A DNA stretch of 64,000 bases from a virus: the IMG/VR virus record IMGVR_UViG_3300044623_001092; one strand, given 5' to 3'. Shown piece by piece: positions 32,472 to 56,146 of this stretch. The notes under the pieces are model-generated. The model ran no database searches. It had not been told where the DNA came from and worked only from the letters and a program-made list of their open reading frames with translations. Every line of letters begins with the position of its first letter. Positions within the stretch are counted from its first letter, which is position 1. A program made the translations under genes and the position numbers.

Positions 32472-32472
32472 A

Positions 32473-32945: not shown

Positions 32946-32946
32946 A

Positions 32947-33216
32947 CTATTCTACGTTAATTGATGAATCTTCATCATTTATTTTGTCTCTTTCAATATC
33001 TCTATCCCATAATTGTTCACTTAAAGTATCAAAATCATCATTAGTCGCTTTCATTTCATCAGCGTTATTCTCAACGTAATCCTTAATCTCTTTGTAAGTT
33101 TTACCATCTAATTCAGGATAATCCCCAATATTTAATTCAATAAATTCACGTCTAATCCAAGTAACATATGACTCAGTAACGTACACTTTAATCGTTTCTA
33201 ATTTTTCTTCACTCAT
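32947..33216 (-). CDS. Hypothetical acidic protein
   Basis: 89-aa ORF in operon. Confidence 0.7.
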   Translation of the reverse strand: MSEEKLETIKVYVTESYVTWIRREFIELNIGDYPELDGKTYKEIKDYVENNADEMKATNDDFDTLSEQLWDRDIERDKINDEDSSINVE

Positions 33217-33308
33217 TTTATTACGTAATTTATATTTATTTTTCCAAGTCCATAGTTATCCCAAGTGGTATTATAATACCATATTGGTTCAATAGTTGTT
33301 TCATTCAT
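33213..33308 (-). CDS. Small hypothetical protein (31 aa)
   Basis: Manual: MNETTIEPIWYYNTTWDNYGLGKININYVIK; fills the operon gap with an ATGA overlap into the next gene. Confidence 0.55.
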   Translation of the reverse strand: MNETTIEPIWYYNTTWDNYGLGKININYVIK

Positions 33309-33316
33309 AATATAAT

Positions 33317-34183
33317 TTATTTTGTTTTATTAGTCAAATATTTTGACATATCCATATTTAAAATTGTGCTTTGAACGTCTTTAGGTACTCTAAATTCTTC
33401 AAATTCCCCCTCATCACTCAGGTGAACTACGATACAACCATATATCTTAATATTTTCGTATTTAGACCCTTTTAACATATCTAACAATAATTTACCATAA
33501 AATGGTAATTGTGTAAAGTAGTGACCCAACGCAGTATCGTCCAAATGCTGAAATGGTGGTTTCATTTTTTTAGTGAAGAAACTAGCTTCAAAATTTTTCT
33601 TCTTATTAGTTTTCCAATCAGTAACAACAATACCTACCTCAGTCTTTTCCTTATTAAAGAATAACCATTTTTTATCGGGTTGACCAACATATTCCAACTC
33701 ATTACTACCTAAAACAATCTCAGTATCCAATAGAACACCTTCTCTTTCTTTCATCAACTCCAAATACCTCACACCCGCAGATATCATCGAGTCACCTTTC
33801 AAAACTTGTGTGAAATCCACCTCAAATATTGGTTCTCGAACTTCTTTGTTTAAATTAAACATTTCAACCGATTTCTTCTCAAGTAAGAAGTGAACTCTTG
33901 ACCCCATGTTGGTTGAATACGTACCAGCATCACCCCACTCTTTCAATAATCTATCTTTTTCTTCGGGGTCACCTTTAGATTTTTTCTCAGCAATTCCGTC
34001 AGTATCAAACTCAGTATAAAAAAGTTTCATCACTTTAGAAACTGAAGGCCAGTCAGTACGTGAATTACCTTCCTTATCAAGCATGGTATATGTGTGAGTA
34101 TCTTCCACGAAAGACATTCCTAATTCTTCTTGTTTTTTTTGAATTATTTCATTAATCTCATCTCTTATTTTATATAAATCCAT
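33317..34183 (-). CDS. PD-(D/E)XK (Cas4-like) exonuclease
   Basis: HTY..SVS, GSRVH, TE, GQPD, DWKT, HY..QL..Y. Confidence 0.85.
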   Translation of the reverse strand: MDLYKIRDEINEIIQKKQEELGMSFVEDTHTYTMLDKEGNSRTDWPSVSKVMKLFYTEFDTDGIAEKKSKGDPEEKDRLLKEWGDAGTYSTNMGSRVHFLLEKKSVEMFNLNKEVREPIFEVDFTQVLKGDSMISAGVRYLELMKEREGVLLDTEIVLGSNELEYVGQPDKKWLFFNKEKTEVGIVVTDWKTNKKKNFEASFFTKKMKPPFQHLDDTALGHYFTQLPFYGKLLLDMLKGSKYENIKIYGCIVVHLSDEGEFEEFRVPKDVQSTILNMDMSKYLTNKTK

Positions 34184-34184
34184 A

Positions 34185-35084
34185 TTATCTCATTTCATAA
34201 TAGTAATCGTTTATGTCCCCTCTCAAATCCGCAACATCAGAATCACCTGTGATTTTTATAATCTTAACTCTACCATACAAACCACCACCATTTAGATTAT
34301 GGAATAATTTAACTGAGTCACCCCAAGCATCACTGTCCAAACAAATAGTAATATTACCTGTTGCTTTATCATATAAAGTTTCAAATAACAAATCTGACAT
34401 ATGTTTACCTAACATAGGGATACTATTAGGTAAAAACACAGAGTCAAACGCCCCTTCAACTAAAAATATATCTTTATCCCAATCAATTAGATTTTCATTG
34501 AAGATGATTTTATCTTTTTCAGCTTCAGGATTCTTGTACTTAGCTTTAGTATGGGGGTCCCAACTCCTTGCGATGTAATAATTCAACTCACCATTTTTAT
34601 CATAAGACGGTATAACAATCCTACCAAAGTGGTTACCTTTATCACAAAACCCTATACCATATTTTTCAATAATATCATCAGTGATACCCCTATTTTTAAG
34701 ATAGGAATACGCTTGTTGATACACGGGGTATCTAGGGTTTGAGTCCCTGAATAATGTGAAATTATCAGGTAATCTTAATTTGGGTAATTTCTTTTCTCTT
34801 GGTTTATTTTCTTCGGGTTGTAAGATATTGTAAACTTTTTTCTGTTTTTTATTCCCATATTTGTCAAATAATTTACCCAAAGGTCCGTGAGTTCCGTTCT
34901 CATCACTACACGACCAACACTTATAAACGTGAGAAAAATAGTTAACCTCAAGGTTACCTTTATGTCTATCTTCATCACATTCAGGACAGTCAAAGGAGAT
35001 TTGTCCCCTATGTTCATAGTGGAGTTTCTCGTCACCCAGGACTTCCCTCAATAATTCAACCAATATTTCTTTATCATCCGACAT
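34185..35084 (-). CDS. DNA primase (Zn finger plus TOPRIM)
   Basis: CPEC...CWSC, YLKNRG, RIVIP, KYKNP, VEGAFD, LDSDA, DVAD. Confidence 0.9.
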   Translation of the reverse strand: MSDDKEILVELLREVLGDEKLHYEHRGQISFDCPECDEDRHKGNLEVNYFSHVYKCWSCSDENGTHGPLGKLFDKYGNKKQKKVYNILQPEENKPREKKLPKLRLPDNFTLFRDSNPRYPVYQQAYSYLKNRGITDDIIEKYGIGFCDKGNHFGRIVIPSYDKNGELNYYIARSWDPHTKAKYKNPEAEKDKIIFNENLIDWDKDIFLVEGAFDSVFLPNSIPMLGKHMSDLLFETLYDKATGNITICLDSDAWGDSVKLFHNLNGGGLYGRVKIIKITGDSDVADLRGDINDYYYEMR

Positions 35085-35169: not shown

Positions 35170-35394
35170 ATGCCAACGGAAATAATCATAACTTCAGTTT
35201 CAGGTGCCACACCCTTTAATGTTTATATATGTGATGACCCAATTATAACATGTGTATATGTTGATACTATAACAGTTGCCAATATACCATACTCGTTTAA
35301 TGTCCCATCAATATTGGATGGTCAAACGTCGTACAATTTGAAAGTGGTGGATAATAATGGTTGCTCCGTTGAGGAAAATTTAACATTATTATGA
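35170..35394 (+). CDS. Small beta-sandwich virion protein (module shared with N-termini of 36538 and 38788)
   Basis: P[FY]x[VI]Y[IV]CD...C...[FY]xxP...KxxxxxGC pattern. Confidence 0.7.
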   Translation: MPTEIIITSVSGATPFNVYICDDPIITCVYVDTITVANIPYSFNVPSILDGQTSYNLKVVDNNGCSVEENLTLL

Positions 35395-36515
35395 GTTGTT
35401 CTACTGAATATTGTATTAGTAATACTAACCACCCTGAATACGATGATAATTTCACATCAAACGGTGATTATGATGGTTATCCTAGTTGGTCTGGGTTAAC
35501 TAATGGATATTATATATATTTTAATACTACAGGAACACAATGGTGTTTATCCTCATCATTAGGTGGGGCTTGTTTATTATCAGGTAAATCACCGTGTACA
35601 TCAGAGTGTCCCGACTTAAACGGTGCGTATTTTGGTTCTGGTATGTGTTTAACACCTACCCCAACCCCAACGAATAATTGTGATATTTTAAATTTCGAAT
35701 CGTTTTTTGATTGTGAGGTTATACCAACTCCAACACCTACCCCAACTCCGACACAAACCCCTACAATGACTCCAACACCAAGTTCAACAAACTATTGTTC
35801 AATTGTGGAAGTTGTTGCAACAATCAATTCATATTCACCAACACCAACTCCAACACCAACAATTACACCGTCATCTTCAGGGATTATTGAAAGACCTTGT
35901 CATTTTTATGGTGACGCTACTTTCAATACGGTAAACGATATGATTAATTGTCCTATCAGTAAACAATTTCAAGATTGTTATAACGGGACAATGTATTACA
36001 CAACAAATAACGTAACTAACCCATCAGGGGGTGAAATTACTCAATATATGGTCTTTAACTCATTAGTCGATGGGTTAACTAAATGTATATCTTATGTTGG
36101 TACAACGAATCAAATTAGTGGGGTAAATAACATAATTTTAAGTTCAGGTCCTTATGGTTACTCTAACTTAGGAGGTTGTAATTCATGTATACCAACGCCA
36201 ACGCCAACACCTACATCAACAATGACACCAACACCAACACCTTCAATAACACCAACACCTTCAATAACACCAACACAAACTAAAACACCTACCCCAACCC
36301 AAACACCAACAACAACCCAAACACCAACAACAACCCAAACACCAACAACAACACCAACAACAACACCAACCCCAACCCAAACACCAACAACAACCCAAAC
36401 ACCAACAACAACACCAACCCAAACACCAACAACAACCCAAACACCAACCCCAACAACTACCCCAATAGTTCCAATACTTTGTGGTATATCGGGTTACACA
36501 TATGATATTTCATAA
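35391..36515 (+). CDS. Cys-rich protein with Thr-Pro mucin-like tracts
   Basis: PTPTPT linkers between Cys-rich modules; long TPT/TTQ tract at 36190-36462. Confidence 0.75.
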   Translation: MSCSTEYCISNTNHPEYDDNFTSNGDYDGYPSWSGLTNGYYIYFNTTGTQWCLSSSLGGACLLSGKSPCTSECPDLNGAYFGSGMCLTPTPTPTNNCDILNFESFFDCEVIPTPTPTPTPTQTPTMTPTPSSTNYCSIVEVVATINSYSPTPTPTPTITPSSSGIIERPCHFYGDATFNTVNDMINCPISKQFQDCYNGTMYYTTNNVTNPSGGEITQYMVFNSLVDGLTKCISYVGTTNQISGVNNIILSSGPYGYSNLGGCNSCIPTPTPTPTSTMTPTPTPSITPTPSITPTQTKTPTPTQTPTTTQTPTTTQTPTTTPTTTPTPTQTPTTTQTPTTTPTQTPTTTQTPTPTTTPIVPILCGISGYTYDIS

Positions 36516-38787: not shown

Positions 38788-41700
38788 ATGACATCTATTG
38801 AGATTGCTAACATAACAGGGTTATCATATCCCTATCAAATATACGTTTGCGACGTGTTTGGCAATCAGTGCGTACTGATTGCTACGATAAATACGTCAGT
38901 ACCTCCAAGTACTAGTTTCATATTACCAAGTCAATTTGATAATGCGCCAGCCGTCGGAGTTAAAATAATGACAAGTGATGGTTGTGAACGATTTGAAATT
39001 GTTTACTGTAACGTATTGGTTGCAACTCCTACACCTACTCCTACACCAACACCTACACCAACTCCAACACCTACCGTAACTAAAACCCCAACTCAAACAC
39101 CAACAAATACCGTAACACCAACTAACACTTCAACACAAACACCAACGAATGCTATAACACAAACACCAACGAATACTTCAACTCAAACACCTACTAATAC
39201 CGTAACTAATACACCAACTAATACGGAAACTCCAACTAACACACCAACACCCACAGTAACTAATACTGTAACTCAAACACCTACTAATACCGTAACTGAA
39301 ACACCTACTAATACTCCAACAAGTACTGTAACTGAAACGCCCACTAATACTCCTACTAGTACTGTAACTGAAACACCAACTAATACTCCAACGCCAACTA
39401 ATACTGAAACACCGACTAATACACCTACTAATACGGTAACAGAAACTCCTACGAATACCCCGACTAATACTACAACCCCAACATCAACAGTTACTGAAAC
39501 ACCGACTAACACACCAACCAATACCCCAACCAACACTATAACACCAACTGTTACTGAAACGCCAACTAACACTCCGACTAATACTATAACACCGACCGAA
39601 ACACCAACTAACACACCAACTAACACGTCAACAATAACACCATTTAACCCAACTAGTACACCAACATCTACTGTAACTGAAACTCCAACTCAAACACCTA
39701 CTCCTACTGTAACTGAAACACCAACAAATACTCCAACATCAACGGTAACCGAAACACCAACAAATACTCCAACATCAACTGTAACTGAAACTCCTACTAA
39801 CACTCCAACTAACACTCCAACTCCAACCAACACAGAAACCCCTACTAATACGCCAACCTCAACTGTTACCGAAACACCAACACAAACACCTACTAATACT
39901 CAAACCCCAACTAACACAGTTACTCAAACTCCAACAAACACTGTAACACCAACTAACACTTCAACACAGACTCCGACTAACACGCCTACGAATACTCCAA
40001 CGAACACCGTAACTAATACCGTTACTCCAACAAAAACTTCTACGAATACACCAACGAATACCCCAACAAATACGCCTACGAATACTGTTACACCGACAAA
40101 TACTTCTACTCAAACACCAACCAATACATCTACTAACACACCAACGAATACTGTTACACCAACGAATACTTCAACTCAAACTCCGACTAATACTCCCACT
40201 AACACATCTACGAATACACCAACACAAACACCAACGAACACAGTAACTAATACCGTTACTCCGACTAACACGTCGACAAATACTCCAACTAATACACCAA
40301 CAAATACTGTAACTCCAACCAATACTTCTACTAATACGCCTACGAATACTCCAACTAATACAGTGACTAATACTGTAACACCAACAAGGACTTCAACTAA
40401 CACACCTACGAATACTCCAACCAATACTGTAACGTCAACTATTACCCCAACTAATACTTCAACCAACACACCTACAAATACACCTACAAATACGGTTACT
40501 CCAACTAATACTTCAACCAATACTCCGACTAACACACCTACGAATACATCAACAAATACTCCTACAAATACTGTTACTCCAACTAACACACCTACGAATA
40601 CACCTACAAATACTGTTACTCCAACAAGGACTTCAACCAACACACCTACTAATACACCAACAAATACTATAACACCTACTAACACTTCAACTAACACACC
40701 TACAAATACTCCAACGAACACTGTTACACCAACAAGAACTTCAACAAATACTCCAACTAATACACCTACTAACACTGTAACACCAACAAGAACTTCAACA
40801 AATACTCCAACTAATACACCTACTAACACTGTAACACCAACAAGGACCTCTACCAATACCCCTACAAACACTCCAACGAACACTGTTACACCAACTAATA
40901 CTTCAACCAACACACCTACAAACACTCCAACGAACACTGTTACACCAACTAATACTTCAACCAACACACCCACAAACACTCCAACGAACACTGTTACACC
41001 AACTAATACTTCAACCAACACACCTACAAACACATCAACACAAACTCCGACTAACACACCAACAAATACTGTAACACCAACTAACACACCTACTAATACT
41101 TCTACTAACACACCTACAAATACACCAACTAACACACCTACTAATACTCCAACACAAACACCTACTAATACTCCAACGAATACTGTTACACCAACAAGGA
41201 CTTCAACAAATACTCCGACTAATACACCTACTAACACCCCAACGAATACGGTAACACCGACCAATACTGTAACTCAAACACCGACTAATACACCTACAGG
41301 AACTCCATTGGAGACTCCAACAAACACACCAACAAGAACATCAACTAATACCCCTACAAACACTCCAACGAATACTATTACCCCAACTAATACTTCTACT
41401 AACACCCCAACTAATACACCAACAAATACTGTCACATCCACAATTACCCCAACAAATACTTCTACTAATACCCCAACAAACACTGTGACACCAACTATTA
41501 CACCGACTAACACTTCAACAAACACACCTACGAACACTGTAACACCTACAAGAACTTCAACTAATACTCCGACTAATACTTCTACTAACACCCCAACGAA
41601 TACACCTACAAATACTGTTACTCCAACAAGGACTTCAACCAACACCCCAACTAATACACCTACAAATACGGTTACTCCAACAAATACTTCAACCAACACC

Positions 41701-44700
41701 CCTACGAATACTGTAACACCAACAAATACTTCAACTCAAACCCCTACGAATACTGTAACACCAACAAGAACTGCAATGAACACTCCTACGAATACCCCTA
41801 CAAATACTGTTACATCAACTAACACCCCAACGAACACTTCGACTAATACTCCTACGAATACGCCAACAAACACTGTAACATCAACTATAACTCCGACCAA
41901 TACTCCTACGAACACACCAACAAAAACTGTTACACCAACCAATACTTCTACTAACACACCTACAAATACACCGACTAACACCCCAACGAATACTGTAACA
42001 AATACACCTACAAAAACAGTTACCCCTACGAATACTCCTACGAATACTCCAACTAACACACCAACGAATACAGTTACACCAACAAGGACTTCAACAAATA
42101 CTCCAACTAACACACCAACGAATACAGTTACACCAACAAGGACTTCAACAAATACTCCAACTAACACACCAACGAATACAGTTACACCAACAAGGACTTC
42201 TACCAACACCCCTACGAATACACCTACGAATACACTGACACCAACAAGGACTTCAACAAATACTCCAACTAACACACCAACGAATACAGTTACACCAACA
42301 AGGACTTCTACCAACACCCCTACGAATACACCTACGAATACACTGACACCAACAAGAACTTCAACTAACACCCCTACGAATACACCTACGAATACACTGA
42401 CACCAACAAGAACTTCAACTAACACCCCTACGAACACTTCGACTAATACTCCTACGAATACGCCTACGAACACTGTCACACCAACAAGAACCGCAACTAA
42501 TACACCGACTAATACCTCAACAAATACACCAACAAAAACCCCTACACCAACAAAAACCCCAACGTCAACTTTGGGTCTTACAAATTATTTAGCACAACAA
42601 TGTTGCCCAACAACTCAATATTGGACATTACCTAATGGTAGTTTTACCGATTTCTCAACGGCAATACCTTTTGTTGATTGTGAGGACCCTGGAGTTTGTT
42701 ACAGGTCTATAAGAGATGGTGCTATAACACGTTATTGTAATAGTGGTATTACTTTATCAGTAGATTGGACTTACGAAACACAACCTTGCGGAGCGAAAGC
42801 GATTAAATCATTAAGTCCAATTTGTTCTGATAGTTATTGGTATTTTGTACAAAATAATGATTCAACACTTAACGTATATCAAATTGCTGATAATGGTTCT
42901 GGTTATGATATCTACAGTGATGTAGGTTGTTGTTCAGAAACTTATATGTCAGATTTAACTAACTCAACAACAGGAACTACTCCATCATTACCAAACTGTA
43001 ATTTTTCGTACACAGGTTCAGGTTTATTCGATTGGTTTAATCGTATTATTGATTTATCGGGTGATGACCCTAATTTACATTTCTACCCTTACTATAATTC
43101 AGGAACAACACAATGTTTAGTTAGTGGTAACGTTAATACTCAAGTAGTATCAATAACGAATAATTATTCTCCGTTGAATAAGACAGTTAAACTAAGTGAT
43201 GGTAATTGTTATAATATTATTTCAATTACAGGTGAAACGTCAACAACTACTTGGGTTCCACCAACATTATATAATGATTGTTTAACTTGTTCATTAACAA
43301 TTACTCCAACACCAACAAGAACCAATACACCAACACCGACTAAAACCCCAACACAAACACCTACAAACACTATCACACCAACTAAAACACCTACAAATAC
43401 CATTACACCTACAAACACTCCAACGAATACTTCTACGAATACCGTTACACCGACTAATACACCAACCAATACTGTAACTCCAACAAGAACACCGACTAAT
43501 ACTCCAACCAATACCGTAACTCCAACAAGAACACCGACTAATACTCCAACTAATACACCAACTAATACACCAACAAGAACCGCAACTAACACGCCTACAA
43601 ATACTGTTACACCAACAAGAACTGCAACGAACACTCCTACGAATACACCTACGAATACTATAACCCCAACTAATACTCCTACGAATACTGTAACACCAAC
43701 CAATACCCCAACGAACACTTCGACTAATACTCCTACGAATACACCAACAAGAACTGTTACACCAACAAGAACCCCGACTAATACGCCAACTAACACACCT
43801 ACAAATACTCCGACAAATACTGTTACACCAACAAGAACTGCAACGAACACTCCAACAAGAACCGCAACTAATACACCAACGAATACTGTTACTCCAACAA
43901 GAACCGCAACTAACACTCCTACAAACACCGTTACACCAACCCAAACAATTACCCCAACCCCAAACCAAACTTGTTTTACATACCCATCAGACCAAACTAA
44001 TATCATAATACCATCATCAGGTATTTCATCTGTTTACCCAATAACATTTACTATTTCAGGTTTAGTTACTGCAATTAGTGATGTTAAAATAACATTAAGT
44101 GGATATTCCCACACCTCAGTCGGAGATGTCGGTATGTTATTGGTAGCACCTGACAATACAAGTTGGTCATTACTATCAGGTAGAGTTGGAGCGGTTAATA
44201 ATGCGGTTAACGCTAACGTAACCTTAACAAGTTTTAGTTCACCAACATGGAATGGATATAGTTCAGGAACATTTAAAAATAATACATTGGTCGGTAACTC
44301 AATGCCATTCTCAGCACCATGTCCAACAACATTTGTTACGGGTAACTCACCTGAATTTACAATTTTTGATGGGTTACAACCACCTGTTTCAAATGGTCTA
44401 TGGAAATTATATATTCAAGATTTCTCAGTTATAGATTCTGGTACATTATCAGGAGCAACATTGGTTATTTGTTCTGAAAATACAACACCTACACCAACAC
44501 CAACTAATACTGTTACACCAACAATTACCCCGACTAATACGCCAACTAACACACCAACAAGAACTGTAACTCCAACAATAACTCCAACTAATACACCAAC
44601 AAGAACTGTAACACCAACAAGAACTTCAACTAATACTCCAACTAACACGCCGACAAACACTCCAACAAATACAGTTACACCATCTATAACACCAACCAAT

Positions 44701-46722
44701 ACCCCAACTAACACACCAACAAGAACTGTAACTCCAACAAGAACCCCAACTAATACTTCAACTAACACGCCGACAAACACACCAACTAATACAGTTACAC
44801 CAACAAGAACCCCGACTAATACGCCAACTAACACACCAACAAGAACCGCAACTAACACGCCGACAAATACTGTTACACCTACAAGAACCGCAACTAACAC
44901 GCCGACAAATACTCCAACAAATACAGTTACACCATCTATAACACCAACCAATACCCCAACTAACACCGTAACAAGAACTGTAACACCAACAAGAACTCCA
45001 ACTAATACTTCAACTAACACGCCGACAAACACACCAACTAATACAGTTACACCAACAAGAACCCCGACTAATACGCCAACTAACACACCAACAAGAACCG
45101 CAACTAACACGCCGACAAATACTGTTACACCTACAAGAACCGCAACTAACACGCCGACAAATACTCCAACAAAAACTGTTACACCATCTATAACACCAAC
45201 TAACACACCTACTAACACCGTAACAAGAACTGTAACACCAACAAGAACTCCAACTAATACTCCAACATCAACAGTTACACCGACAAGAACACCAACGAAT
45301 ACTCCAACACCTACTAAAACACCTACTCCAACACCAACATCAACATGTTTTAGTTATACTTTAGTTGGTACAGGTCGTTCAGGTGGTCAGTTCACATTTA
45401 CACCTTGTTGTACTAACGTTTATAATTCACCTGTTACTTTGAGTGCTGAGGATGGAGTATCAACAACTCAAGTATGTTCAAGTACATTACCTGTTTTATC
45501 AAGTGGTGGAGGAACAATCACGTTAAATGGTACATGTGATTATTGTGGTGATTGTTATTGTTTTGATTTGGCGGGTGGTGGATATACTTATATTGATTGT
45601 TCAGGGACAACACAAACTATTTTGACGTTGGCGACTACTGTATGTTCATCAAGTTATGTAGTACCAGATAGCTTTTCATCATCTTTCTCTAGAAGAGGAT
45701 TCTGTAGTGGTGGTATATGTCCAACACCAACACCTACACCAACACCAACGCCGACCATAACTGTTACACCGACAAGTACTTGTATTGGATATAACTTAAC
45801 TTACAACGGTGCTGAGTTAGGGTCATCAAGTGTTGCTTTTACACCATGTTGTAGTAATTCAACTGTGAATCCACGAGGGATGGGAATAGAAAGACCTTTT
45901 TTCTCAATTTGTTCAACAACTACACCTGTCGTTACTAATCTTAATGGTGGTAGTGTCTCAGTAGTTTCAACAGGTGTTTGTCCATGTACTACACCTACAC
46001 CAACACCAACAGTCACACCAACTAAAACAAATACACCAACACCCTCAGTTACTCCTAATTTTGTATCTGCGAATTTAATGATTCATTATGATTATAATAA
46101 TACATCATCATACGTTGGGACAGGTACATTAGTTAACGATTTAACGTCCGATAATATTACATCAACATTAACAGGCGGACCAACATTCAGTGGGTCACCA
46201 TTTGGTGTTATGAATTTTGATGGTGCTGGCGACCATACCTCATCCATCCAAAACGCCAATCTGTCAGCAATAACTAGCACGGTAACTTGTGAAGTATGGG
46301 TAAGACCTATTGATGTAAGTTTAGGTTCTGAAAAACAATTAGTAAATTATAATAATAACTTAGGTTTCAGAGCTAGAATAAACACAGATGGTTCAGTTGA
46401 AGCTATATATAACAACGGTGGAAGTGTCGATACCCTTCTAACCAGCCCTTCTTTAATTTTAAGTTCTACATGGTACCAAATAACTGTTGTATACCAAAAC
46501 ACATTGGTGAGTATTTACAAAAATGGGGCATTAGTAACCTCAGTTTTTGGATTAGGATTAAGCATGAACGCAACAAACACTAATATTCAATTTGGAAGAA
46601 TGTCTCCAGGTACTGAATGGTTTAAAGGTGGTTTAGGTATAATGAGAGTGTATAACTCAGCATTATCGGCAGCACAAGTCTTACAAAATTTTAATTTTAA
46701 TAGAGGAAGATTTGGTATATAA
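38788..46722 (+). CDS. Giant mucin-like protein: TPTN repeat blocks, Cys-rich modules, proprotein-convertase P-domain, C-terminal LamG/ConA-like domain
   Basis: 2644 aa; P-domain [24 protein letters not shown]...[10 protein letters not shown]...SGTLSG; LamG FDGAGD...TCEVWVRP...WYQITVVY...IYKNG...[17 protein letters not shown]. Confidence 0.85.
39022..42570 (+). repeat. Coding Thr/Pro/Asn repeat block 1 (includes near-exact 54-bp units near 42060-42430)
   Basis: [12 protein letters not shown] units; ccaacgaatacagttacaccaacaaggacttc recurs at a 54-nt period. Confidence 0.9.
43297..43960 (+). repeat. Coding Thr/Pro repeat block 2
   Basis: TPTN/TPTR units. Confidence 0.9.
44482..45345 (+). repeat. 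Coding Thr/Pro repeat block 3 with 252-bp higher-order period
   Basis: catctata (PSIT) at 44681, 44933, 45185. Confidence 0.85.
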
Positions 46723-47035: not shown

Positions 47036-47644
47036 TTACCAAACCTCAATTTGATTCATAAAACCAAGGACACAACAATAGGCATCGGTTTGGTCAAAAT
47101 TTTCTTTCTTTAAAGTATTATTTTTGGTGTATAACCATTGAATTTGAGGTTCAAGTTTAGCAATTTTCTCCCATATAATCATTTTCTTATCAATGTCTTT
47201 AGGTAGACCACCAAACAAAACAAACTTACCTTTATCATTCTGTTGAACCAACTCAGGGAAAGCAAATTTTCTTGAGTTATAAGTCGATATAAATTCAGGT
47301 ACTATACCAAGGATATCGTAAATTTCTTTACAGATAAAACTATTAAACCTCATTAAAACTTGTACAGTATTAATATTATTTGAGTTCAACAAAGGTTCTT
47401 CAATAATGACTCTAACAATTCCTAAATTTTTATATTCTAAAAGTTTAGTATTAAAAACCTCAGCCTTTAACAATAAATCTTTAATTTTACTGTTATCTTG
47501 ATTTTCTGTAGATTTAGGTCTAGGTGAAATATGTGTCAATTCCAAAAGTTCTTTACTTTGGATGTCAAATAATGCCCACCCTATTGTTCGGGTTGAAACA
47601 TCTAATCCTAATACTTTTGGGCTTTCTTTTAATGTTTTACTCAT
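47036..47644 (-). CDS. RuvC-like Holliday junction resolvase
   Basis: VLGLDVSTRTIGWA, IIEEP, FDQTDAY acidic catalytic motifs; ATG 47644. Confidence 0.8.
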   Translation of the reverse strand: MSKTLKESPKVLGLDVSTRTIGWALFDIQSKELLELTHISPRPKSTENQDNSKIKDLLLKAEVFNTKLLEYKNLGIVRVIIEEPLLNSNNINTVQVLMRFNSFICKEIYDILGIVPEFISTYNSRKFAFPELVQQNDKGKFVLFGGLPKDIDKKMIIWEKIAKLEPQIQWLYTKNNTLKKENFDQTDAYCCVLGFMNQIEVW

Positions 47645-47648
47645 AAAT

Positions 47649-50135
47649 TTAAAAATCAAATTTTATTACAAACTGTTGAATTCCGAGCCGTGGCGTAGGA
47701 GATTGTAGTTTAGATATAATCATAAGGTCGTCGTTCAAATCGTAAAGACCAATTTCAGTAATATATAGTTGATTACCATTTACCCAACCAGGATTTGAAC
47801 TTGCTTGGAACTCAGCATCACCCAAATTGATTTTATATCTCATTTCATATATTGTTGCTTGTACGTCAGTTTCAACAGTACCATAGAAGTAATATTCATC
47901 ACCAAAGTTTAGTTGGTGACCACTAAATCCAAGTGGTGTTAATTCAATATAATCCGATAAATCATATGATGGGGCGGCATCATATAAATCTTTACTAATA
48001 ACAAAAGTAGTACCTGTTAATCCATCTGCCGTAATATAACCATTAATCGTTGTCGCCGATAATATATCGGTATAATCAATAACTTTCCATTCAGTAGGGT
48101 CAGGTCTACCATCACCAATTACTTTTTGACAAATAATTTCAAATTTATCAGCAAAGAATCCTGTCGATAAATCGCATACATCAGGACAAAGTGTTGTACT
48201 CGTTGTTGTGTAAACACTTGTGGTTGTTGTTGTAATAACACTTGTTGTTGTTGTAGTCGTAGATGGTGAATACGATTTATAATTTAAACAATTAAATTCG
48301 GACCCAAATCTTACTGAGACATTTTGAGGTCCAATGTCTAAACAAGATAAATTAGGTCCTTGTATTTTAGTATAATAGTTACAATGTAACGAATTTGTAA
48401 AAGAATATTGATTACCCAATCTATAAGTAATGTATAAGTACTCAGTATTACCCGTTAAAATCCCCTCACTTGATTGATTTGATGGTCCACAAGTGTTTGG
48501 CGTAGTTAACCCTACTTTAGGAGCTGGTAACGTCCAATTTCGGTTTGATTTATATGATAACGATGCAATAATTTCTTCATCATCAATAATAACAATTTTA
48601 TGGTCAGGAAATACCTTACCAATTCTATTCGGTAAACCATTAATACTTGGGTTATCATCCCATAAATGATAATAACGAATACCAGGTGTGTTCATATCAA
48701 GGTTTTTCTTAGACTCAATATAGCTAGGCTGAAATAAGTCAAAATCCTCAAACCCTGGAGGGTCTACCCAAAATGTTTGTCCTTGACAACAATCAGGATT
48801 TTTATGCCACATCAATGATGGTAAACTAATTTTGAAGTTTCTTGCTTGTCCAACAGTATCTTCAGGTAATGTTGGGTCTAAAGGTTGTAACGCAAATTTT
48901 TCACCATAATAAAAATCAATTGTCTGATTGGTATAATGAATAATAGCAATTGCCTTTTGTTCTTCAGGTTGGACCTTAACAATCTCACTAAATGAATTAT
49001 AATAATATGTATCGGTCGTTTCAGCACTTAAAGTTGGGTCAACGTAGAATGTTTGACCTGAACTTGATTGATACCCTAAATATTCTTTAGTACCCACATA
49101 TTGTGCGGAACCAAACTTAGAAAAACCTTTAACAACATCACCATCTAATCCAGCTAAATCTTCTGACCAAGGAATATTCATATTCCATATCTTAACATCC
49201 AACTCATCAGTATCACATAACGATTCAAAATTAATAACATCAGTATTGTAATGATTTAATGGTGTAACACTATCATATAGGTTAGTCATATTAGGTGGGT
49301 AAATAATAGTTCTAGCGTAACACACACTTAATAAATCACCATAATCAGGTGTTGGTCTGTCTAACGTAATCTCGTTATTACAAACATCTAAAATTCTATA
49401 AGTTAAAATACCATAACAACTAAACATGCTCATACCACAATTAGGTATATCAACAGGTGTTGGTGTTGGGAATACCGTAGTTGTTGTTGTCGTAGTATCA
49501 CACGGTAAAGTTGTTGAGGTTGTCGTAGTTGGCGATAAGGTAGTTGTTGTTGTTGTTGTAGTCGATGTTGTACCACATCCACAATCATTTTTAGCTCGAC
49601 CATCAAAATAAATTGTGATTAAATCACCAGCCTGTGGTAATCTTGCTATATTTGTATTACAACCTGAATAAATAACAGTAATCACATCACTACCTGTTAA
49701 TGTTGACATATCAATCATGTAGTTAGAATTAATAACATGTTGATTATCCGTAAACGCACTCCAATATGTAAAGTTGTCTAACGTAATTCCTGTGAAGAAA
49801 CCTCTCGGTTCCGCTCTGTTATAGACAGGACTATCAATCGAATCCATATATGGTATACCATACGTATTACCTGTAAATCCTTTTACATAATACGGATATT
49901 TAATATTCTGTTTGTTTGATTGGGGAGCCCCACTTGAATTCTGAGCATTAAATGCTGGTTCCAATATCATCGTCTCTAATTGATTGTATGATGTTGGTAA
50001 GACATTATAAGAAACCTCACTATCACCAATTTGGAAATAAGATATGTTAAAATTACCTTGTGATAATTTTTCTCTCCCCGTATCAGTTAATCTACTGTTA
50101 ATTAACGCTGATGTATTTTTTAATATATAACTCAT
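47649..50135 (-). CDS. Baseplate/tail structural protein with poly-Thr insertions
   Basis: LTDTGREKL...F.ISYF..GDSEV N-terminus and ITEIGLYD...LMIISKL..P C-terminus typical of tail-collar/baseplate-type proteins. Confidence 0.65.
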   Translation of the reverse strand: MSYILKNTSALINSRLTDTGREKLSQGNFNISYFQIGDSEVSYNVLPTSYNQLETMILEPAFNAQNSSGAPQSNKQNIKYPYYVKGFTGNTYGIPYMDSIDSPVYNRAEPRGFFTGITLDNFTYWSAFTDNQHVINSNYMIDMSTLTGSDVITVIYSGCNTNIARLPQAGDLITIYFDGRAKNDCGCGTTSTTTTTTTTLSPTTTTSTTLPCDTTTTTTTVFPTPTPVDIPNCGMSMFSCYGILTYRILDVCNNEITLDRPTPDYGDLLSVCYARTIIYPPNMTNLYDSVTPLNHYNTDVINFESLCDTDELDVKIWNMNIPWSEDLAGLDGDVVKGFSKFGSAQYVGTKEYLGYQSSSGQTFYVDPTLSAETTDTYYYNSFSEIVKVQPEEQKAIAIIHYTNQTIDFYYGEKFALQPLDPTLPEDTVGQARNFKISLPSLMWHKNPDCCQGQTFWVDPPGFEDFDLFQPSYIESKKNLDMNTPGIRYYHLWDDNPSINGLPNRIGKVFPDHKIVIIDDEEIIASLSYKSNRNWTLPAPKVGLTTPNTCGPSNQSSEGILTGNTEYLYITYRLGNQYSFTNSLHCNYYTKIQGPNLSCLDIGPQNVSVRFGSEFNCLNYKSYSPSTTTTTTSVITTTTTSVYTTTSTTLCPDVCDLSTGFFADKFEIICQKVIGDGRPDPTEWKVIDYTDILSATTINGYITADGLTGTTFVISKDLYDAAPSYDLSDYIELTPLGFSGHQLNFGDEYYFYGTVETDVQATIYEMRYKINLGDAEFQASSNPGWVNGNQLYITEIGLYDLNDDLMIISKLQSPTPRLGIQQFVIKFDF

Positions 50136-50155: not shown

Positions 50156-51628
50156 TTATTCATACAACGATTGATTAAGAACACTACAACAATTACAACC
50201 TGTAATGCTAGCGTTAGTAACAAACGAATTAGTGGTAGCAAAATTAGCACTACAACAACCACTACCAGTTGCCGTCACACCATATTTTAATGGCCCAAGA
50301 GGTCCATCACCCAAATCAACGTTATCATACTCATTTGGTAATGGTGTTGGTTCAGGTGTTTGACTTTCAAATAATGCTTGTGGTGGTGGTGGATTATTAC
50401 ATGTTAACAGATAATCAGTTATTAACTTAATACTATAAACATCCGTTGAATTAATAGTTAAGTCAGTATAGTTACGATTAAAATTCGTCTGATACTTCAA
50501 ATAATTAGTACAACCTGGTGTCGTATTAGCAACCGTTGTTACGACATCATTATCAACACTTGGTATTGTTAAACCATTTTTAATAATTTCTGTGGTATAC
50601 GATTTAGTTGCCGAATTAAGATAAGGCGTTTGAGTAAACATTCCAGAAAAATCCATATTAAACTTAATTGTTGTTCCATCATTAGGTAATGATGGTGTAA
50701 TATTTACAACATACGTATATTCGTAAGATGTACTAGATACCTGAACCGTAGAAAATATATTCATTGATATAGTATAAACCGTCATAGGTTCACTAGTGAA
50801 TATTACATTACCTGATTGAGATGATACAATTGTACCTTCACTATCCTTAATTTGAGGTGTAAAAGTCACATCAGGACATAAGTTATTGAATAATGGATTA
50901 CTCACCCATGTTGTTCCCCCATTTACCGAATATTGATATGGTGGTACACCTCCAAGACCTTGTATTGTTATTGAAGCATCACAACTTGTACATGATGGGT
51001 TATTTTTAGTTACCATTAATCTTAAATTACCAACATTAACACATTCACCTTCAGTTACAGTTACAGTACCTTGATTACCCAACATTAACCACCCACTTAA
51101 TGGTGGATAGGTAGGGTCGTTATTAATAACCGTTAAATTATTTACAGTATCAACCAACTCCCAACGATTATCAACGTTATCCCAAACGATGGTATATAAA
51201 ACATCATCTGAAATCCAACTTTGTTTACCATTCACAATCCCATTAGGATTAAAATAAATAGATAAATCAACCACACTATCACCTTTAAAATAATGAATAA
51301 CCATACAGAAATCATACGTAATAATTGGTGATGTTGTTGTTGTTGTAGTTGTTGTTGGGACAACAGGCCCTGTTAATACACAAGTAGTATTTGCAGTAAA
51401 ATCACCATAATAATCAACAATCGTTGCAGGATACGAACCTGCCGATAAATTATTAATTGCAAATGAACTATTACCATTTTCCCAAGTAATATTGTAAGGT
51501 GGTGTTCCACCTGTAACAATTAAAGTTGCAGTACCATTAGACGCATTCTGTCCACTAGGATTAGTTACTTGACACGCAACCCCAAGTGGGAATATTACTA
51601 TAGGTTGACACTCATTATTTTCAGGCAT
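50156..51628 (-). CDS. SprB-repeat-containing structural protein
   Basis: NGTATLIVTGGTPPYNITW...NNLSAGSY; GGVPPYQYSVNGG..W...LFNNL. Confidence 0.8.
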   Translation of the reverse strand: MPENNECQPIVIFPLGVACQVTNPSGQNASNGTATLIVTGGTPPYNITWENGNSSFAINNLSAGSYPATIVDYYGDFTANTTCVLTGPVVPTTTTTTTTSPIITYDFCMVIHYFKGDSVVDLSIYFNPNGIVNGKQSWISDDVLYTIVWDNVDNRWELVDTVNNLTVINNDPTYPPLSGWLMLGNQGTVTVTEGECVNVGNLRLMVTKNNPSCTSCDASITIQGLGGVPPYQYSVNGGTTWVSNPLFNNLCPDVTFTPQIKDSEGTIVSSQSGNVIFTSEPMTVYTISMNIFSTVQVSSTSYEYTYVVNITPSLPNDGTTIKFNMDFSGMFTQTPYLNSATKSYTTEIIKNGLTIPSVDNDVVTTVANTTPGCTNYLKYQTNFNRNYTDLTINSTDVYSIKLITDYLLTCNNPPPPQALFESQTPEPTPLPNEYDNVDLGDGPLGPLKYGVTATGSGCCSANFATTNSFVTNASITGCNCCSVLNQSLYE

Positions 51629-51653: not shown

Positions 51654-52643
51654 TCAGTTATTCCGTTTTTGTTGAATTAACGACTTCATAACTTCAATAT
51701 ATTTTATGGTTGAACTATTCTTTTCAATAAAATCAAAATAATTAGGGTCACTTTCAATCTTTTTTAAGGGGTCCTCATTAATATATTCCCCTTTATAAAA
51801 TTTCCTATCTTTTAAATCTTGAGTCACTCCCGCCATATGAAGAATTGGTTTCTTTTCATATATTACAATATCATCTGTCGCCCATGAAAAATCTAATTCT
51901 TTTGTTATTTTAGTTTCTTTACCAAAATACCATAGATTCCATAAGACCGACCACATTTCCGCAGTCCAAAATTGTATTTCACCAGGACTGATTGGGTATC
52001 GTTTTTGATAACTCATCATTTGGTCATATAATGGAACACAATCATTATATATCTTTTCCCACATCTTAGCGTCAGTGTCTTTAATAATATATTGACCACC
52101 ACCCGAATTCTCTTGATTACATTTAACACATTCAACATCAACACCAATAACATCAACCATTTCTTGAATCAATTGACCTTTATTTGAATTGGGGTGTTGT
52201 TGCTCATATCTTTCACAACAATCCATAATATAGTTATAACCAATATAACCCACAGTATCCGATACATATGTTATGTCATCATCTAATAACGCTTTAAAAT
52301 CAGGTAATTCTCTAAAGATGATATCAGCGTCATGTAAAAAAAATGACTTACCATATTGTGGATTCTCCACCAACCATTTATAGATTAAAAATGGTTTAAT
52401 ATTTGGTATATAATGTTTTCGTTCTCTATCATCTAAATAATGATGAACATTAATTCCTAATTTTTTTAATTCTAAAGATTCTTCACTAGGTTCTTTTTTA
52501 CCCTGAACCATTGCTAGCACAACATGAATATTATTGGGGTTAATACCTTTCTCGATGAAATTATGTACATAAACCTTAATTTGCCAATGAAAATATGGGA
52601 CATCAGGTTGTGCTGAAACAAATACTAAATTATTAAAATCCAT
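51654..52643 (-). CDS. GT-A fold glycosyltransferase resembling plant peptidyl-serine galactosyltransferase (GT96) / hydroxyproline arabinosyltransferase (GT95)
   Basis: PYFHWQ, YIPNIKPFLIYKWL, LHDADIIFR (DxD), WTAEMW, ILH, in the same order as recalled SERGT1 motifs YFDWQ, YPAINKP..V..WL, ILDADMIIR, WISEMY. Confidence 0.7.
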   Translation of the reverse strand: MDFNNLVFVSAQPDVPYFHWQIKVYVHNFIEKGINPNNIHVVLAMVQGKKEPSEESLELKKLGINVHHYLDDRERKHYIPNIKPFLIYKWLVENPQYGKSFFLHDADIIFRELPDFKALLDDDITYVSDTVGYIGYNYIMDCCERYEQQHPNSNKGQLIQEMVDVIGVDVECVKCNQENSGGGQYIIKDTDAKMWEKIYNDCVPLYDQMMSYQKRYPISPGEIQFWTAEMWSVLWNLWYFGKETKITKELDFSWATDDIVIYEKKPILHMAGVTQDLKDRKFYKGEYINEDPLKKIESDPNYFDFIEKNSSTIKYIEVMKSLIQQKRNN

Positions 52644-52703: not shown

Positions 52704-53243
52704 TTATGCGATAGTTGTTGTAGTTGTAGTAATTTGGTTAAAATTAGGTATTGTTGATTGTTCAAACTGTTCATCCATAAGTAACACCATAACATTTTTA
52801 ACACAACACATTACTTCCGCCTCCAAGACCTGGTATTCTTCAGCAATTGTTATGTCAAAAGTACCGTCACCATAATCAACGGTAAAACTAAGAGTGTCCT
52901 GACCCCCACTTATATTTGGAATAATTAAGGTTTCATTTTGAACACCTGTTTGGGGGGTACAAATCATCATATTCCAAAAAACCAAATATTTTTTATGATA
53001 ATCCAAATAACACACTTCCCAAAAATCAATATAAATTTTCTGTTCGAACTCAGGCTCACATGGTTCTCCAGAAATACAAACAGATGTCACATCAATATAA
53101 TTACTAAACGACTTAAAAAACGCATTTTTAGTTTCGGTTGCGGTAGTATACATGTTTTCCCAAGTTGAGCAATCCGATTCAGTTGTTCCTGTTCCGAATA
53201 TCCCTAAGTTAATATAATCACAATTATCGTAAAAAAATGCCAT
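52704..53243 (-). CDS. Hypothetical Cys-rich protein with PKD-like VDYGDG motif and Thr tail
   Basis: 179 aa. Confidence 0.6.
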   Translation of the reverse strand: MAFFYDNCDYINLGIFGTGTTESDCSTWENMYTTATETKNAFFKSFSNYIDVTSVCISGEPCEPEFEQKIYIDFWEVCYLDYHKKYLVFWNMMICTPQTGVQNETLIIPNISGGQDTLSFTVDYGDGTFDITIAEEYQVLEAEVMCCVKNVMVLLMDEQFEQSTIPNFNQITTTTTTIA

Positions 53244-53254
53244 ACATAATAAAA

Positions 53255-56146
53255 TTAAAATTTATATTTAAATATTTGATATAATGGTGCGTGAAATGTC
53301 GCCCAAGTAAATGGTTTCCAAGCAAGTAACAATTCATTTAATGCTTTAAAATAAGCTTGAGATTGACTTCTTTGTGCAAAATCACAATCCTCAATATCAG
53401 GATAACCAATTATCACAGTACCATAAGGTGTCCAAGTATTAGTATTTGGGTCCCACTGATAAAAAAGATTATCATCTATAACAAAACAAAACGTACCAAA
53501 GTTGCTAGTTAACGGTAAATCACCATATGATTGTACCTCAGTCAAATATACTATATCAAAATCATATTGAGGCCCGATAAGACCTTCATCAGCAAATATT
53601 TTTTTACAACTACATCCTTGTAATACGTTAAATTTATACCAACCAATATTATTTTGTCCATAATCATAAAAATCAAATTCTTCGGCCGATGGTGGTAATA
53701 CAACCGTTAAATTTTCCGCGGCAGTTATAAGACCGTAAGTAAGGTATCCATTATACTCATTTTGATATTTAAGGTAAGCCATTCTAATTTGTTGGAATTG
53801 TTGTTCAACACCAGGAATTACACCTTGACAATCGTTAGGATTATAAAAAGGTAATTCAGTACATCTACTAGGGATGAAATCCGAATCACTTAGGTAATCC
53901 GCCCCAAAATAATTCCAAGTTATCGGAGAAATAACTTTAGTATCAGTAGTTTCACAATATTCATTAGTTATTTCACAATTTATCGGTATAAATTCAGGAG
54001 TATAACATCCTGTACACAATTCACATGATATATCATAATATATAACCATATTAATCACAACATCAGCGTCATTTAACGATACTATACTATTACAATCGGT
54101 TGTTATAGTCATTTTATTTTCTTCAACATCGAAGGTAACCGAAGCTATCCCATCATAACTAAGTAACATAGACTCAATAACATCATCCCACTCATTCACC
54201 GTTGGATATTCATTTAATGTAGTTCCTGTATAAAATTCTTGGGTTGTCGTCACACCACTAACGGTTACTGAAGCTTCAAATATAGATTGATTTAAAACAC
54301 AATTAAATTCATTTAGAGTCAACTCATAAAACCCTTCCAATAACATTTGTTTAGGTCCTTTAGTTAATAACTCACCATAATTAGATAAATCAGAGTCACA
54401 CACATTATAAACTTGATATGACGATACAAATACATTACCATCAATAGTTACCGTTCTAATTTTCTCACAATCATTACTATCAACAACCTTTAATGTGTAA
54501 GTTCCCGCAGATAAATTATTAACAGTCATACCTGTTTGACCATTTACGTTTGAACTCCACGTTAACACGAATGGTGGTATTCCACTCGTTATTAGTGCGG
54601 TAATGGTCCCATTATTACCAACCGTTGAATCAGTTGACGTTAATATAAAATCAACCCCACTAGATATGTTTACACTATCAACAATTGTTTGAGTACAACC
54701 ATTGTTATCCGTTACGTCAACACTATGAATTCCAGAAGATAAATTGGTGAAGGTATGGGAAGTTAATGAAGTAATTACTATTTCATCCCCATCTAAAGTA
54801 TAGGTATAATTAGGTGAACCTCCCGATATTATAACCTCAAAAACACCGTTATCATTACCACATGTTGTTCCTGTAACGTTTGAAGATAAATTAAACGTAT
54901 TATCATTTTCAATAGTAAATGAATTGGTATAGTCACAAGGCCCATTATCAGTAATGGATATGGTATAATCACCATAGGTCAAATTATTAAACGTCCATGT
55001 GGTACTTGGAAGTGTTTGGGTTGTTGTTGTACCTCCAACTTTAGTTAGTGTATAAACATATGGAGGTGAACCACCATTTAAATTCATTGTCACAAAACCC
55101 GAAGACCCACAAACAGAAGGTGAATACGAAAAAGACACCACCGAGAATCCACCTGGAGTTAATAAAGTAGCAATTCCCGACGCGGTACATAGACCTGAAT
55201 CCGTAATTAAAATATTATAATTACCACTTGAGACATTTGTAAATGTATATTCAGCGTCAAAAGTAAAATAATTACCAATTGATGATGCTGAAAAGTTATA
55301 AGGTGCGGTACCACCCGTTACCACAACTGTAATTTCACCATCAGAACTATAACAAGATGGGTCAGTAGTTAATATTGTTGCAATTCCAAGTGGGGGCACT
55401 TGACTAACCAAAGTCGTCTTACTAACAGAACAACCTGTATTATCCGTTACCGTAACATTGTATCCACCTGTTGTTAAACCTGTTAATGTTGAACCTGTAG
55501 TTCCATTTGACCATAAATAAGTGTAAGGTGGGTTACCCGTTAAACCCGTGATAAAAATTTTACCTGAATTAACCGCACAACCCGCATCATTAACCACATA
55601 AAATCCATAGTCAACTGTATTTGAGTCTTGTATAATAATCGTTTCACTTTTACCCGTACAACCACCACCATCATCAGCAACAACATAATAAGTACTAGCA
55701 GATAAATTAGTGAACTCGAAAGTCTCATACGTAGTTAATGCCGAAGTTATAAAACCATTATCGTAGTCGTATAAGTAAAATATCGCATTCCCAAACATAT
55801 TCGTAGTTGTTGCAGTAACACTACCGTTATCATTACCACATAAAGTATTAGTAAACCCATCCACTGAAACACAAGTACCACTTGATATATAAACGTTAAC
55901 AGGTATTACTGTATTTATTGGGTTACAACTATCAATAATTGTAAATGAATATGTGGATGCCGATAAGTCAGTTACCGTATATTCAGTAACACCTACACCT
56001 AACGCTATCGTACCATAAGAAGAAGGTGTTAACCATTGTATAGTATAATCAGGAGCAGTCCCCGTAATTTCGATAGTAAACGCCCCGCTATTAGTATTCG
56101 AACAATCACCTGTAATACTTAAACTATATGAAAGAGGACAAGCCAT
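53255..56146 (-). CDS. Multi-SprB-repeat structural/adhesin-like protein
   Basis: About seven repeats of C....G.I.V...GG.PPY.Y.W....T..NL..G.Y...VTD..GC. Confidence 0.85.
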   Translation of the reverse strand: MACPLSYSLSITGDCSNTNSGAFTIEITGTAPDYTIQWLTPSSYGTIALGVGVTEYTVTDLSASTYSFTIIDSCNPINTVIPVNVYISSGTCVSVDGFTNTLCGNDNGSVTATTTNMFGNAIFYLYDYDNGFITSALTTYETFEFTNLSASTYYVVADDGGGCTGKSETIIIQDSNTVDYGFYVVNDAGCAVNSGKIFITGLTGNPPYTYLWSNGTTGSTLTGLTTGGYNVTVTDNTGCSVSKTTLVSQVPPLGIATILTTDPSCYSSDGEITVVVTGGTAPYNFSASSIGNYFTFDAEYTFTNVSSGNYNILITDSGLCTASGIATLLTPGGFSVVSFSYSPSVCGSSGFVTMNLNGGSPPYVYTLTKVGGTTTTQTLPSTTWTFNNLTYGDYTISITDNGPCDYTNSFTIENDNTFNLSSNVTGTTCGNDNGVFEVIISGGSPNYTYTLDGDEIVITSLTSHTFTNLSSGIHSVDVTDNNGCTQTIVDSVNISSGVDFILTSTDSTVGNNGTITALITSGIPPFVLTWSSNVNGQTGMTVNNLSAGTYTLKVVDSNDCEKIRTVTIDGNVFVSSYQVYNVCDSDLSNYGELLTKGPKQMLLEGFYELTLNEFNCVLNQSIFEASVTVSGVTTTQEFYTGTTLNEYPTVNEWDDVIESMLLSYDGIASVTFDVEENKMTITTDCNSIVSLNDADVVINMVIYYDISCELCTGCYTPEFIPINCEITNEYCETTDTKVISPITWNYFGADYLSDSDFIPSRCTELPFYNPNDCQGVIPGVEQQFQQIRMAYLKYQNEYNGYLTYGLITAAENLTVVLPPSAEEFDFYDYGQNNIGWYKFNVLQGCSCKKIFADEGLIGPQYDFDIVYLTEVQSYGDLPLTSNFGTFCFVIDDNLFYQWDPNTNTWTPYGTVIIGYPDIEDCDFAQRSQSQAYFKALNELLLAWKPFTWATFHAPLYQIFKYKF

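Follow-up and report, generated by a model that had tools for sequence, protein, structure and literature searches.

The 64,000-nucleotide stretch of viral DNA that was analysed here as a whole (IMG/VR record IMGVR_UViG_3300044623_001092; hereafter the window) contains a tightly packed row of minus-strand genes, within which a gene for a putative glycosyltransferase (GT) lies among genes whose products carry uninterrupted runs of threonine (Thr). The GT gene is a single ATG-to-stop open reading frame (ORF) of 329 amino acids (aa) that fills positions 51654-52643 exactly. A preliminary description of this DNA had noted a soluble ORF with five motifs at this place, together with poly-Thr inserts in the proteins beginning at 47649, 50156 and 52704 and Thr/Pro arrays in those beginning at 35391 and 38788. 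All of these are present, and the minus strand of the ORF can be added. The motifs lie at residues 16 (PYFHWQ), 78 (YIPNIKP), 104 (HDADI), 226 (WTAEMW) and 267 (ILH). The features needed for the argument, in which "acceptor" denotes a protein that might receive the sugar, are as follows.

24368-25249, minus strand: 293-aa protein of unknown function with PTTTTTT near its C-terminus (residues 273-280), a possible acceptor
35391-36515, plus strand: 374-aa protein with (TP)n and TTQTP arrays, listed for context only, as relatives show no co-variation of this array type with the GT
38788-46722, plus strand: 2644-aa protein with a TPTN array, likewise context only, its array type not co-varying with the GT in relatives
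47649-50135, minus strand: 828-aa protein with poly-Thr at two linker sites (residues ~187-220 and 623-645), a candidate acceptor whose orthologues have tracts with the GT and none without it
50156-51628, minus strand: 490-aa SprB-repeat protein (PF13573, E 1.5e-8) directly downstream of the GT, with a T8 insert, PTTTTTTTTSP (residues 90-101), a candidate acceptor
51654-52643, minus strand: predicted GT-A glycosyltransferase of the phrog_4417 family, HPAT-like, 329 aa, soluble, with D105/D107 as DxD and a conserved H269
52704-53243, minus strand: 179-aa protein directly upstream of the GT, with the Thr tag …ITTTTTTIA (residues 170-177), a candidate acceptor
53255-56146, minus strand: 963-aa SprB-repeat protein (PF13573, E 3.1e-21) without a poly-Thr run

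The 329-aa ORF contains no membrane segment or signal peptide and its highest 19-residue Kyte-Doolittle mean is 0.81, which marks the protein as soluble. It belongs to phrog_4417 of the PHROGs collection (function unknown; E 6.5e-72, with residues 8-321 matching profile positions 3-290 of 293), a family that counts 1228 homologues in a collection clustered at 90% and forms 850 clusters at 50% identity, and tblastn (E 1e-5) finds the family in 77 phage records. The five motifs coincide with family columns that are invariant or near-invariant (Y17, W20, Q21, Y78, D105, D107, W226, M230, W231 and H269). An AlphaFold2 model of the ORF, computed with 60 diverse relatives in the alignment, reached a predicted local distance difference test score (pLDDT) of 97.4 and a predicted template modelling score of 0.94, and with very high confidence the protein is predicted to fold as a GT-A glycosyltransferase, nearest to retaining enzymes. 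Its best structural matches are glycogenin (Z 15.0), the Skp1 alpha-galactosyltransferase (14.7), LgtC (14.2), WbbM (14.0), UGGT (14.0) and GlyE (13.4); more than 100 chains match at Z of at least 8, with mostly GT-A enzymes and related nucleotidyltransferases in the top ranks, and Foldseek matches GT8, GT24 and GT6 at E about 1e-6. The comparison by structure that the preliminary description had proposed thus leads to retaining GT-A enzymes, several of them protein-glycosylating, with the lipopolysaccharide (LPS) enzymes LgtC and WbbM also among the best. Judging from the family pattern, D105-x-D107 and H269 would fit the GT-A metal site.

The preliminary description had further classed the enzyme as a plant-type protein O-glycosyltransferase related to the hydroxyproline (Hyp) arabinosyltransferases HPAT. 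A Pfam scan of the ORF was empty even at E 10, including GT8 (PF01501) and the HPAT family PF23452, and searches of the PDB with the ORF and with the family profile gave nothing meaningful (chance matches to TAL-effector repeats, and GNPTAB at E 0.55). In protein-language-model features, the nearest named clusters bear PF23452 (20 of 30 matches, with shares of 10% and 58%). When the family profile was aligned by hhalign with a profile of four PF23452 members, the match extended over 244 columns, which is the whole domain, at E 1.6e-5 and a probability of 79%, and single PF23452 sequences gave E 5e-6 and 2e-4; YxxWQ, DxD, WxxDMW and I-x-H are all in register in this alignment. As a negative control, seven non-homologous regions of fused relatives (GT2, PF11397, GT6, GT32, O-fucosyltransferase and others) reached only E 0.08-0.65 over 1-53 columns. 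The profile match and the control scores together argue that the resemblance to HPAT is specific remote homology and not generic GT-A similarity. By comparison with bacterial PF23452 members, then, the ORF family is a remote homologue of HPAT, though it stands outside the Pfam membership rule, for which the gathering cut-off is 23.9 bits; verified HPAT members in Actinomycetota genomes score 101.6, 90.4, 31.0 and 29.1 bits with the HPAT model. The glycosyltransferase and HPAT (GT95) parts of the earlier classification accordingly stand, the former by fold and the latter as remote homology.

In longer homologues the domain is fused to GT2, GT4, GT6, GT32, PF11397, O-fucosyltransferase, methyltransferase and F5/8-C lectin-like domains, partners that look like a setting for the assembly of glycans. 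The longer homologues found were all fused forms from bacteria or phages, with no plant protein among them. Examples are P0273 (1915 aa) and P0162 (1369 aa), with fusions to GT4, GT2 and methyltransferase or to O-fucosyltransferase, PF11397 and F5/8-C, and one member of the family alignment also contains radical-SAM/SPASM domains. On a contig of a Candidatus Microthrix metagenome-assembled genome (L334 / L394), a family copy and a true PF23452 gene lie ~4 kb apart, the latter overlapping the end of a 466-aa same-strand ORF; this may be a multi-enzyme protein-glycosylation locus of the actinobacterium or its prophage.

The window phage is itself an uncultured jumbo phage, and its relatives are uncultured jumbo phages of 257-322 kb with a GC content of about 31%. 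They were collected through two neighbouring genes, irrespective of the enzyme, whose presence was then scored with a hidden Markov model of the family. Runs of at least six Thr, for which the chance expectation is ~0.01 per genome at 6-7% Thr, were present at 49 of 53 distinct enzyme-positive loci and at none of 12 enzyme-negative ones (Fisher p = 4.5e-10, uncorrected for kinship), whereas (PT)n linkers, found at 50/53 and 12/12 loci, respectively, form a control trait that is unassociated with the enzyme. The co-occurrence of homologues with Thr/Pro-rich structural proteins that the preliminary description had suggested looking for therefore holds for Thr runs and fails for Pro-Thr arrays. 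Complete genomes give the same picture, with 6 and 5 such Thr runs in two enzyme-positive genomes and 0 and 0 in two enzyme-negative ones, as against 7 and 6 or 7 and 9 genes, respectively, with (PT)4+ linkers; the largest T/P-array proteins of the four (six proteins of up to 3782 aa) are those of the enzyme-negative genome G001. A search of the whole records behind ten enzyme-negative loci found the enzyme in none of them; two of these records, at 322 and 257 kb, are genomes of 100% completeness. The same search recovered it in 5/5 enzyme-positive records used as positive control. With a second gene set, Thr runs of this length were found at 22/25 enzyme-positive and 2/16 enzyme-negative loci; one of the two exceptions has the enzyme elsewhere in its record, outside the part that had been retrieved, and the second is a fragment of 9% completeness. 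On a tree computed with the tracts masked, the enzyme state changes at least 5-6 times, and in five independent contrasts on that tree the Thr trait was concordant in 4-5 and opposite in none.

The association can be followed to individual sites. Orthologues of the 828-aa protein carry Thr tracts at 57/63 enzyme-positive loci and at 1/15 of the enzyme-negative loci that cover the slot. In the alignment, Thr runs occupy the second linker site in enzyme-positive orthologues and are missing from enzyme-negative ones, and in a sister pair the enzyme-negative L120 retains the insert minus its Thr runs while the enzyme-positive L134 has them; at the first site, Pro-Thr linkers occur in both groups alike. 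The sole unambiguous virion protein identified in the lineage is the tail sheath (phrog_23, E 1e-55 to 1e-58), whose inserts in two enzyme-positive genomes read TTTTSTSTTTSTT… and …TTTTTTT; in the enzyme-negative genomes the same site holds a Pro-Thr linker (G003) or no Thr run (G001). These two sheaths (G011 281741-285127 and G012 31451-34774; L258, L291) are ~1100 aa long, and the linker lies inside a large N-terminal extension. The lineage correlate of the enzyme is hence homopolymeric Thr runs, not Pro-Thr or TPTN arrays. The preliminary description had also advised a look for prolyl hydroxylase and nucleotide-sugar genes. A search for a prolyl-hydroxylase-type gene (PF13640) succeeded in the control genomes and found none in the four complete relatives, which makes a Hyp-type acceptor unlikely. 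Nucleotide-sugar epimerase genes do not follow the enzyme, being present in one enzyme-positive and one enzyme-negative complete genome, and the donor is therefore presumably a host nucleotide sugar.

The pairing recurs in unrelated phages. In Enterococcus phage phiFL1A, the homologue gp51 follows directly after the major tail protein gene, and the major tail and major head proteins bear long Thr tags at their ends; the capsid and tail orthologues of three Streptococcus prophages (~57-60% identity) stop just short of the tag point, and the enzyme was not found in these three complete prophage records. The GT match is unbroken in phiFL1A, 1B and 2B and split in two, across two annotated genes (gp60/gp61 in phiFL1C), in phiFL1C and phiFL2A, which may reflect a frameshift or sequencing error and would be a natural knockout if real. 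Likewise, the capsid and tail proteins of the enzyme-positive Coetzeevirus R3.3 (Lacticaseibacillus) end in …TTTTTTKAPTTTTTSSHA and …TTTTTTSHA, and neither enzyme nor Thr tags were found in the Coetzeevirus phages phiJL-1, ATCC8014 and phiLpTT2. Thr-rich proteins adjoin the GT gene in Lactobacillus phage Bacchae and Chryseobacterium phage MA9V-3. Among copies in bacterial genomes, an ORF with at least six consecutive Thr lies within 6 kb in 28/80, and in Bacillota prophages the arrangement is stereotyped, with proteins of ~400, 110 and 210 aa that each end in a Thr run, the last stopping at the GT start. Taken together, the five lineage contrasts and the two from Gram-positive phages give up to seven concordant and 0 discordant cases (sign test 0.016, or 0.031 if six are counted).

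The surroundings of the gene in the window fit a phage, the other genes including DnaJ, sigma-70, an SbcC/D-type nuclease, a primase, a Dam methylase and a tail-fibre-like 884-aa protein. The preliminary description had placed the ORF between SprB-repeat and baseplate-type genes; SprB repeats are indeed found (PF13573, in both flanking genes), and the baseplate assignment drew nothing from Pfam, PHROGs or tblastn. SprB-type repeats are known in Bacteroidota gliding adhesins, and their presence in two proteins of this phage (50156-51628 and 53255-56146, neither with a signal peptide evident by eye) points to a host among the Bacteroidota and to a function as fibres or adhesins. The genes at 56-64 kb drew no structural annotation from PHROGs or Pfam. 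A tblastn search of isolated phages with the 828-aa and 1119-aa neighbours was empty, as was a megablast search with positions 47-60 kb. A RuvC-like Holliday-junction resolvase (47036-47659, minus strand; weak PHROG matches, E 3e-5) overlaps the end of the fibre-like row by 11 bases, which suggests that a DNA enzyme is co-transcribed with the putative structural genes. The 374-aa and 2644-aa Thr/Pro-array proteins are encoded on a convergent island. TPTN-type array makes up about 60% of the 2644-aa protein, which also has globular inserts rich in Cys and a globular domain at its C-terminus, and its ACN-rich codons push the GC skew to -0.73 over 40-42 kb.

As the GT is gained and lost together with Thr runs, the enzyme probably sugar-coats the virion by adding O-linked sugar to Thr runs of virion proteins. 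In the proposed mechanism, a soluble, cytoplasmic, metal-dependent GT-A enzyme, probably retaining, would be produced alongside the late genes and, with a nucleotide sugar from the host as donor, would glycosylate the hydroxyl groups of homopolymeric Thr runs, in the cytoplasm and before or during virion assembly. In the window phage, the acceptor runs would be the linkers or C-terminal tags of the fibre-like products of the genes around the GT; its relatives would also have them on the tail sheath, and small Gram-positive phages on the major capsid and tail-tube proteins. The outcome would be a glycan-coated, extended and protease-resistant segment at the virion surface. Lineages without the GT put Pro-based linkers at the same positions, so that the sugar may replace the stiffness or protease resistance conferred by proline. 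We infer Thr as the acceptor, the sugar used, initiation of the glycan by this enzyme and the benefit to the phage from these patterns. A broader version of the proposal, to which we give an even chance, is that this is a widespread and hitherto undescribed mucin-type O-glycosylation of phages, in which the HPAT-like family marks pure Thr runs on capsids, tail tubes, sheaths and fibres. It would be found in phages as small as the 38-kb siphophages of Enterococcus and Lactobacillus and as large as 300-kb jumbo phages from freshwater, and the same linkers would switch between Pro-Thr, stiff on its own, and poly-Thr, stiff once it bears sugar, upon loss or gain of the enzyme.

Several observations weigh against virion O-glycosylation at Thr runs and must be set beside it. 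The threshold of six Thr was picked after genome-wide lists had been inspected, so the p-values are optimistic, and an earlier, looser criterion applied to one gene gave 3-4/5 concordant contrasts (p 0.125-0.25). Four of the 53 enzyme-positive loci have no run of this length within 10 kb. The pairing is not universal either, since no tract of Thr or of mixed Ser/Thr lies within 6 kb of 52/80 bacterial copies; a criterion that admits mixed Ser/Thr added a tract to only 1/52 of the loci without T6 runs. These tract-less copies come mainly from Chitinophaga, Pedobacter, Mucilaginibacter, Sphingobacterium and Actinomycetota, and in such lineages the family evidently has other or remote acceptors. 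In the window, the tract-bearing proteins have no structural match in Pfam or PHROGs and are thus only putative virion proteins, and the model of the 828-aa protein is poor (pLDDT 48.6), suggesting only that the tracts lie in disordered stretches between beta-rich domains. The likeness in fold tells neither donor nor acceptor. With the PF23452 model, 2/60 relatives matched, below threshold at E of at least 0.09, as did 0/84 and 0/10 in further sets, and three GT-bearing phage records gave no match to the HPAT model.

Other explanations of the enzyme differ in what they take its substrate to be. The preliminary description had proposed the Thr-Pro and TPTN stalk proteins beginning at 35391 and 38788 as the main substrates, forming mucin- or extensin-like fibres. 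It is true that a distance of 5-16 kb separates the giant arrays from the GT in the window, that PT-rich linkers are, as is well established, classical O-glycosylation sites, and that HPAT relatives are known to target Pro/Hyp-rich repeats. However, (PT)n linkers are equally frequent with and without the GT, whether counted by locus or by complete genome, giant T/P arrays peak in a genome that lacks the GT, and shared linker sites are PT in phages without it and Thr runs in phages with it; together with the failure to find a prolyl-hydroxylase-type gene in the four complete relatives, this makes the stalks improbable as main substrates. A target other than protein, be it a host cell-wall glycopolymer, a lipid-linked sugar or phage DNA, would render the poly-Thr correlation indirect. 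Most characterised phage glycosyltransferases are known to act on DNA or host surface glycans (PMC12619734), the structural neighbours include LPS-building LgtC and WbbM, and the tract-less bacterial copies point the same way. We nevertheless hold such a target to be unlikely: the protein is soluble and without membrane partner genes, in small phages its gene lies inside the head-tail row and abuts a tagged tail or capsid gene, and up to seven gain/loss contrasts match the Thr tags in direction. In addition, 38-kb siphophages would seem to have no obvious room for a base-hypermodification pathway (no search for one was made).

Two further possibilities concern the step catalysed and the meaning of the correlation itself. 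The enzyme might elongate a virion glycan begun by a host enzyme or another phage enzyme instead of adding the first sugar to Thr, as could be read from relatives that are fused to as many as three other glycosyltransferase domains and from the true HPAT-family gene ~4 kb from a family copy on one Actinomycetota contig. Since in small phages such as phiFL1A the GT is the sole glycosyltransferase annotated within the surrounding 13 kb of head and tail genes, and the nearest named family consists of peptide-initiating enzymes, a role confined to elongation seems unlikely. Least probable of all, and by our estimate very unlikely, is that the GT gene and Thr-run segments merely travel together, by shared ancestry or in a mobile cassette, and have no biochemical link. 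The small number of independent contrasts (5 plus 2) and the trait threshold set after the data had been seen would favour such co-travel, but the tracts lie in separate, unlinked genes, the sheath being ~50 kb from the GT in G011 and G012, and they occur in unrelated proteins of unrelated phages, which hitch-hiking of a cassette does not explain.

If the proposed O-glycosylation of Thr runs is true, self-glycosylation would be common in phages that infect lactic acid bacteria, enterococci, staphylococci or Bacteroidota, with relevance to phage therapy (immune clearance and stability), dairy phage biology and host-range studies. The presence of the enzyme together with a run of at least six Thr would then be a sequence rule predicting glycosylated virion proteins, a currently "hypothetical" family of >1,200 members would obtain a function, and a plant cell-wall enzyme family would be tied to a relative in prokaryotic viruses. 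Culturable carriers exist, so the idea is directly testable.

Among known systems, retaining GT-A enzymes of the GT8/GT24 type share with the ORF the fold (Z 13.4-15.0 over 209-245 residues) and a DxD followed by a late His, and the group includes the protein-glycosylating glycogenin, GlyT, UGGT and GlyE. They differ in that identity to the ORF is 8-13%, that there is no Pfam GT8 match, and that the phage protein has an extra helical region (residues ~131-175) and a C-terminal helix. Plant and algal HPAT (GT95) have the GT-A fold and the identical motif order YxxWQ, DxD, WxxDMW and I-x-H, and the two likely also have in common that hydroxyls of repetitive low-complexity peptide tracts are the target. 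Plant HPAT enzymes are membrane-anchored in the Golgi, whereas the phage ORF, which misses the Pfam threshold, is soluble and cytoplasmic, and its correlate is poly-Thr and not Hyp or Ser in Pro-rich repeats, no prolyl hydroxylase having been found in the relatives. SGT1/SERGT1 (GT96) is an HPAT-related peptidyl-serine alpha-galactosyltransferase, to which the preliminary description had likened the ORF by its motif order. A64R of the chlorovirus PBCV-1 is likewise a virus-encoded soluble GT-A enzyme, one that acts on its own virus's capsid protein (Z 11.0 to the ORF); however, that virus is eukaryotic, and A64R, by far the shorter protein, resembles the ORF only as GT-A enzymes do in general. 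The capsid glycans of PBCV-1 are atypical and N-linked.

Glycosylation of mycobacteriophage virions was reportedly described by Freeman et al. in Cell Host Microbe in 2023, and actinobacteriophages are, to our knowledge, the only phages for which glycosylation of the virion has been demonstrated; there it alters antibody recognition. The mycobacteriophage system is the closest published one: as summarised in other papers, glycosyltransferases encoded by the phage modify the capsid and tail-tube subunits with glycans at their C-termini (PMC12619734; also PMC13313380, PMC12582341). The remark in the preliminary description that no module of enzyme and substrate was known from phages is thus outdated (PMC12619734). 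In the literature, we found no paper linking the present enzyme family with Thr tags. Both systems combine a phage GT with a dedicated acceptor segment on virion proteins, here the tags of phiFL1A and R3.3 and the sheath insert of G011 and G012, and the phiFL1A and R3.3 tags sit at the same C-terminal capsid and tail positions as the mycobacteriophage glycans. The enzyme family is apparently a different one, with 0 Mycobacterium phages among the 77 family-bearing phage records (tblastn E 1e-5, a search that does not cover remoter kinship). In contrast to mycobacteriophages, the acceptors in the window phage are unannotated, fibre-like candidates, the acceptor signature is a pure Thr run, which sheath and fibre-like proteins also use internally as a linker, and the hosts are Bacillota and Bacteroidota. 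What would be new compared with the mycobacteriophages is therefore a different enzyme family, a simple acceptor defined by its sequence, and different hosts.

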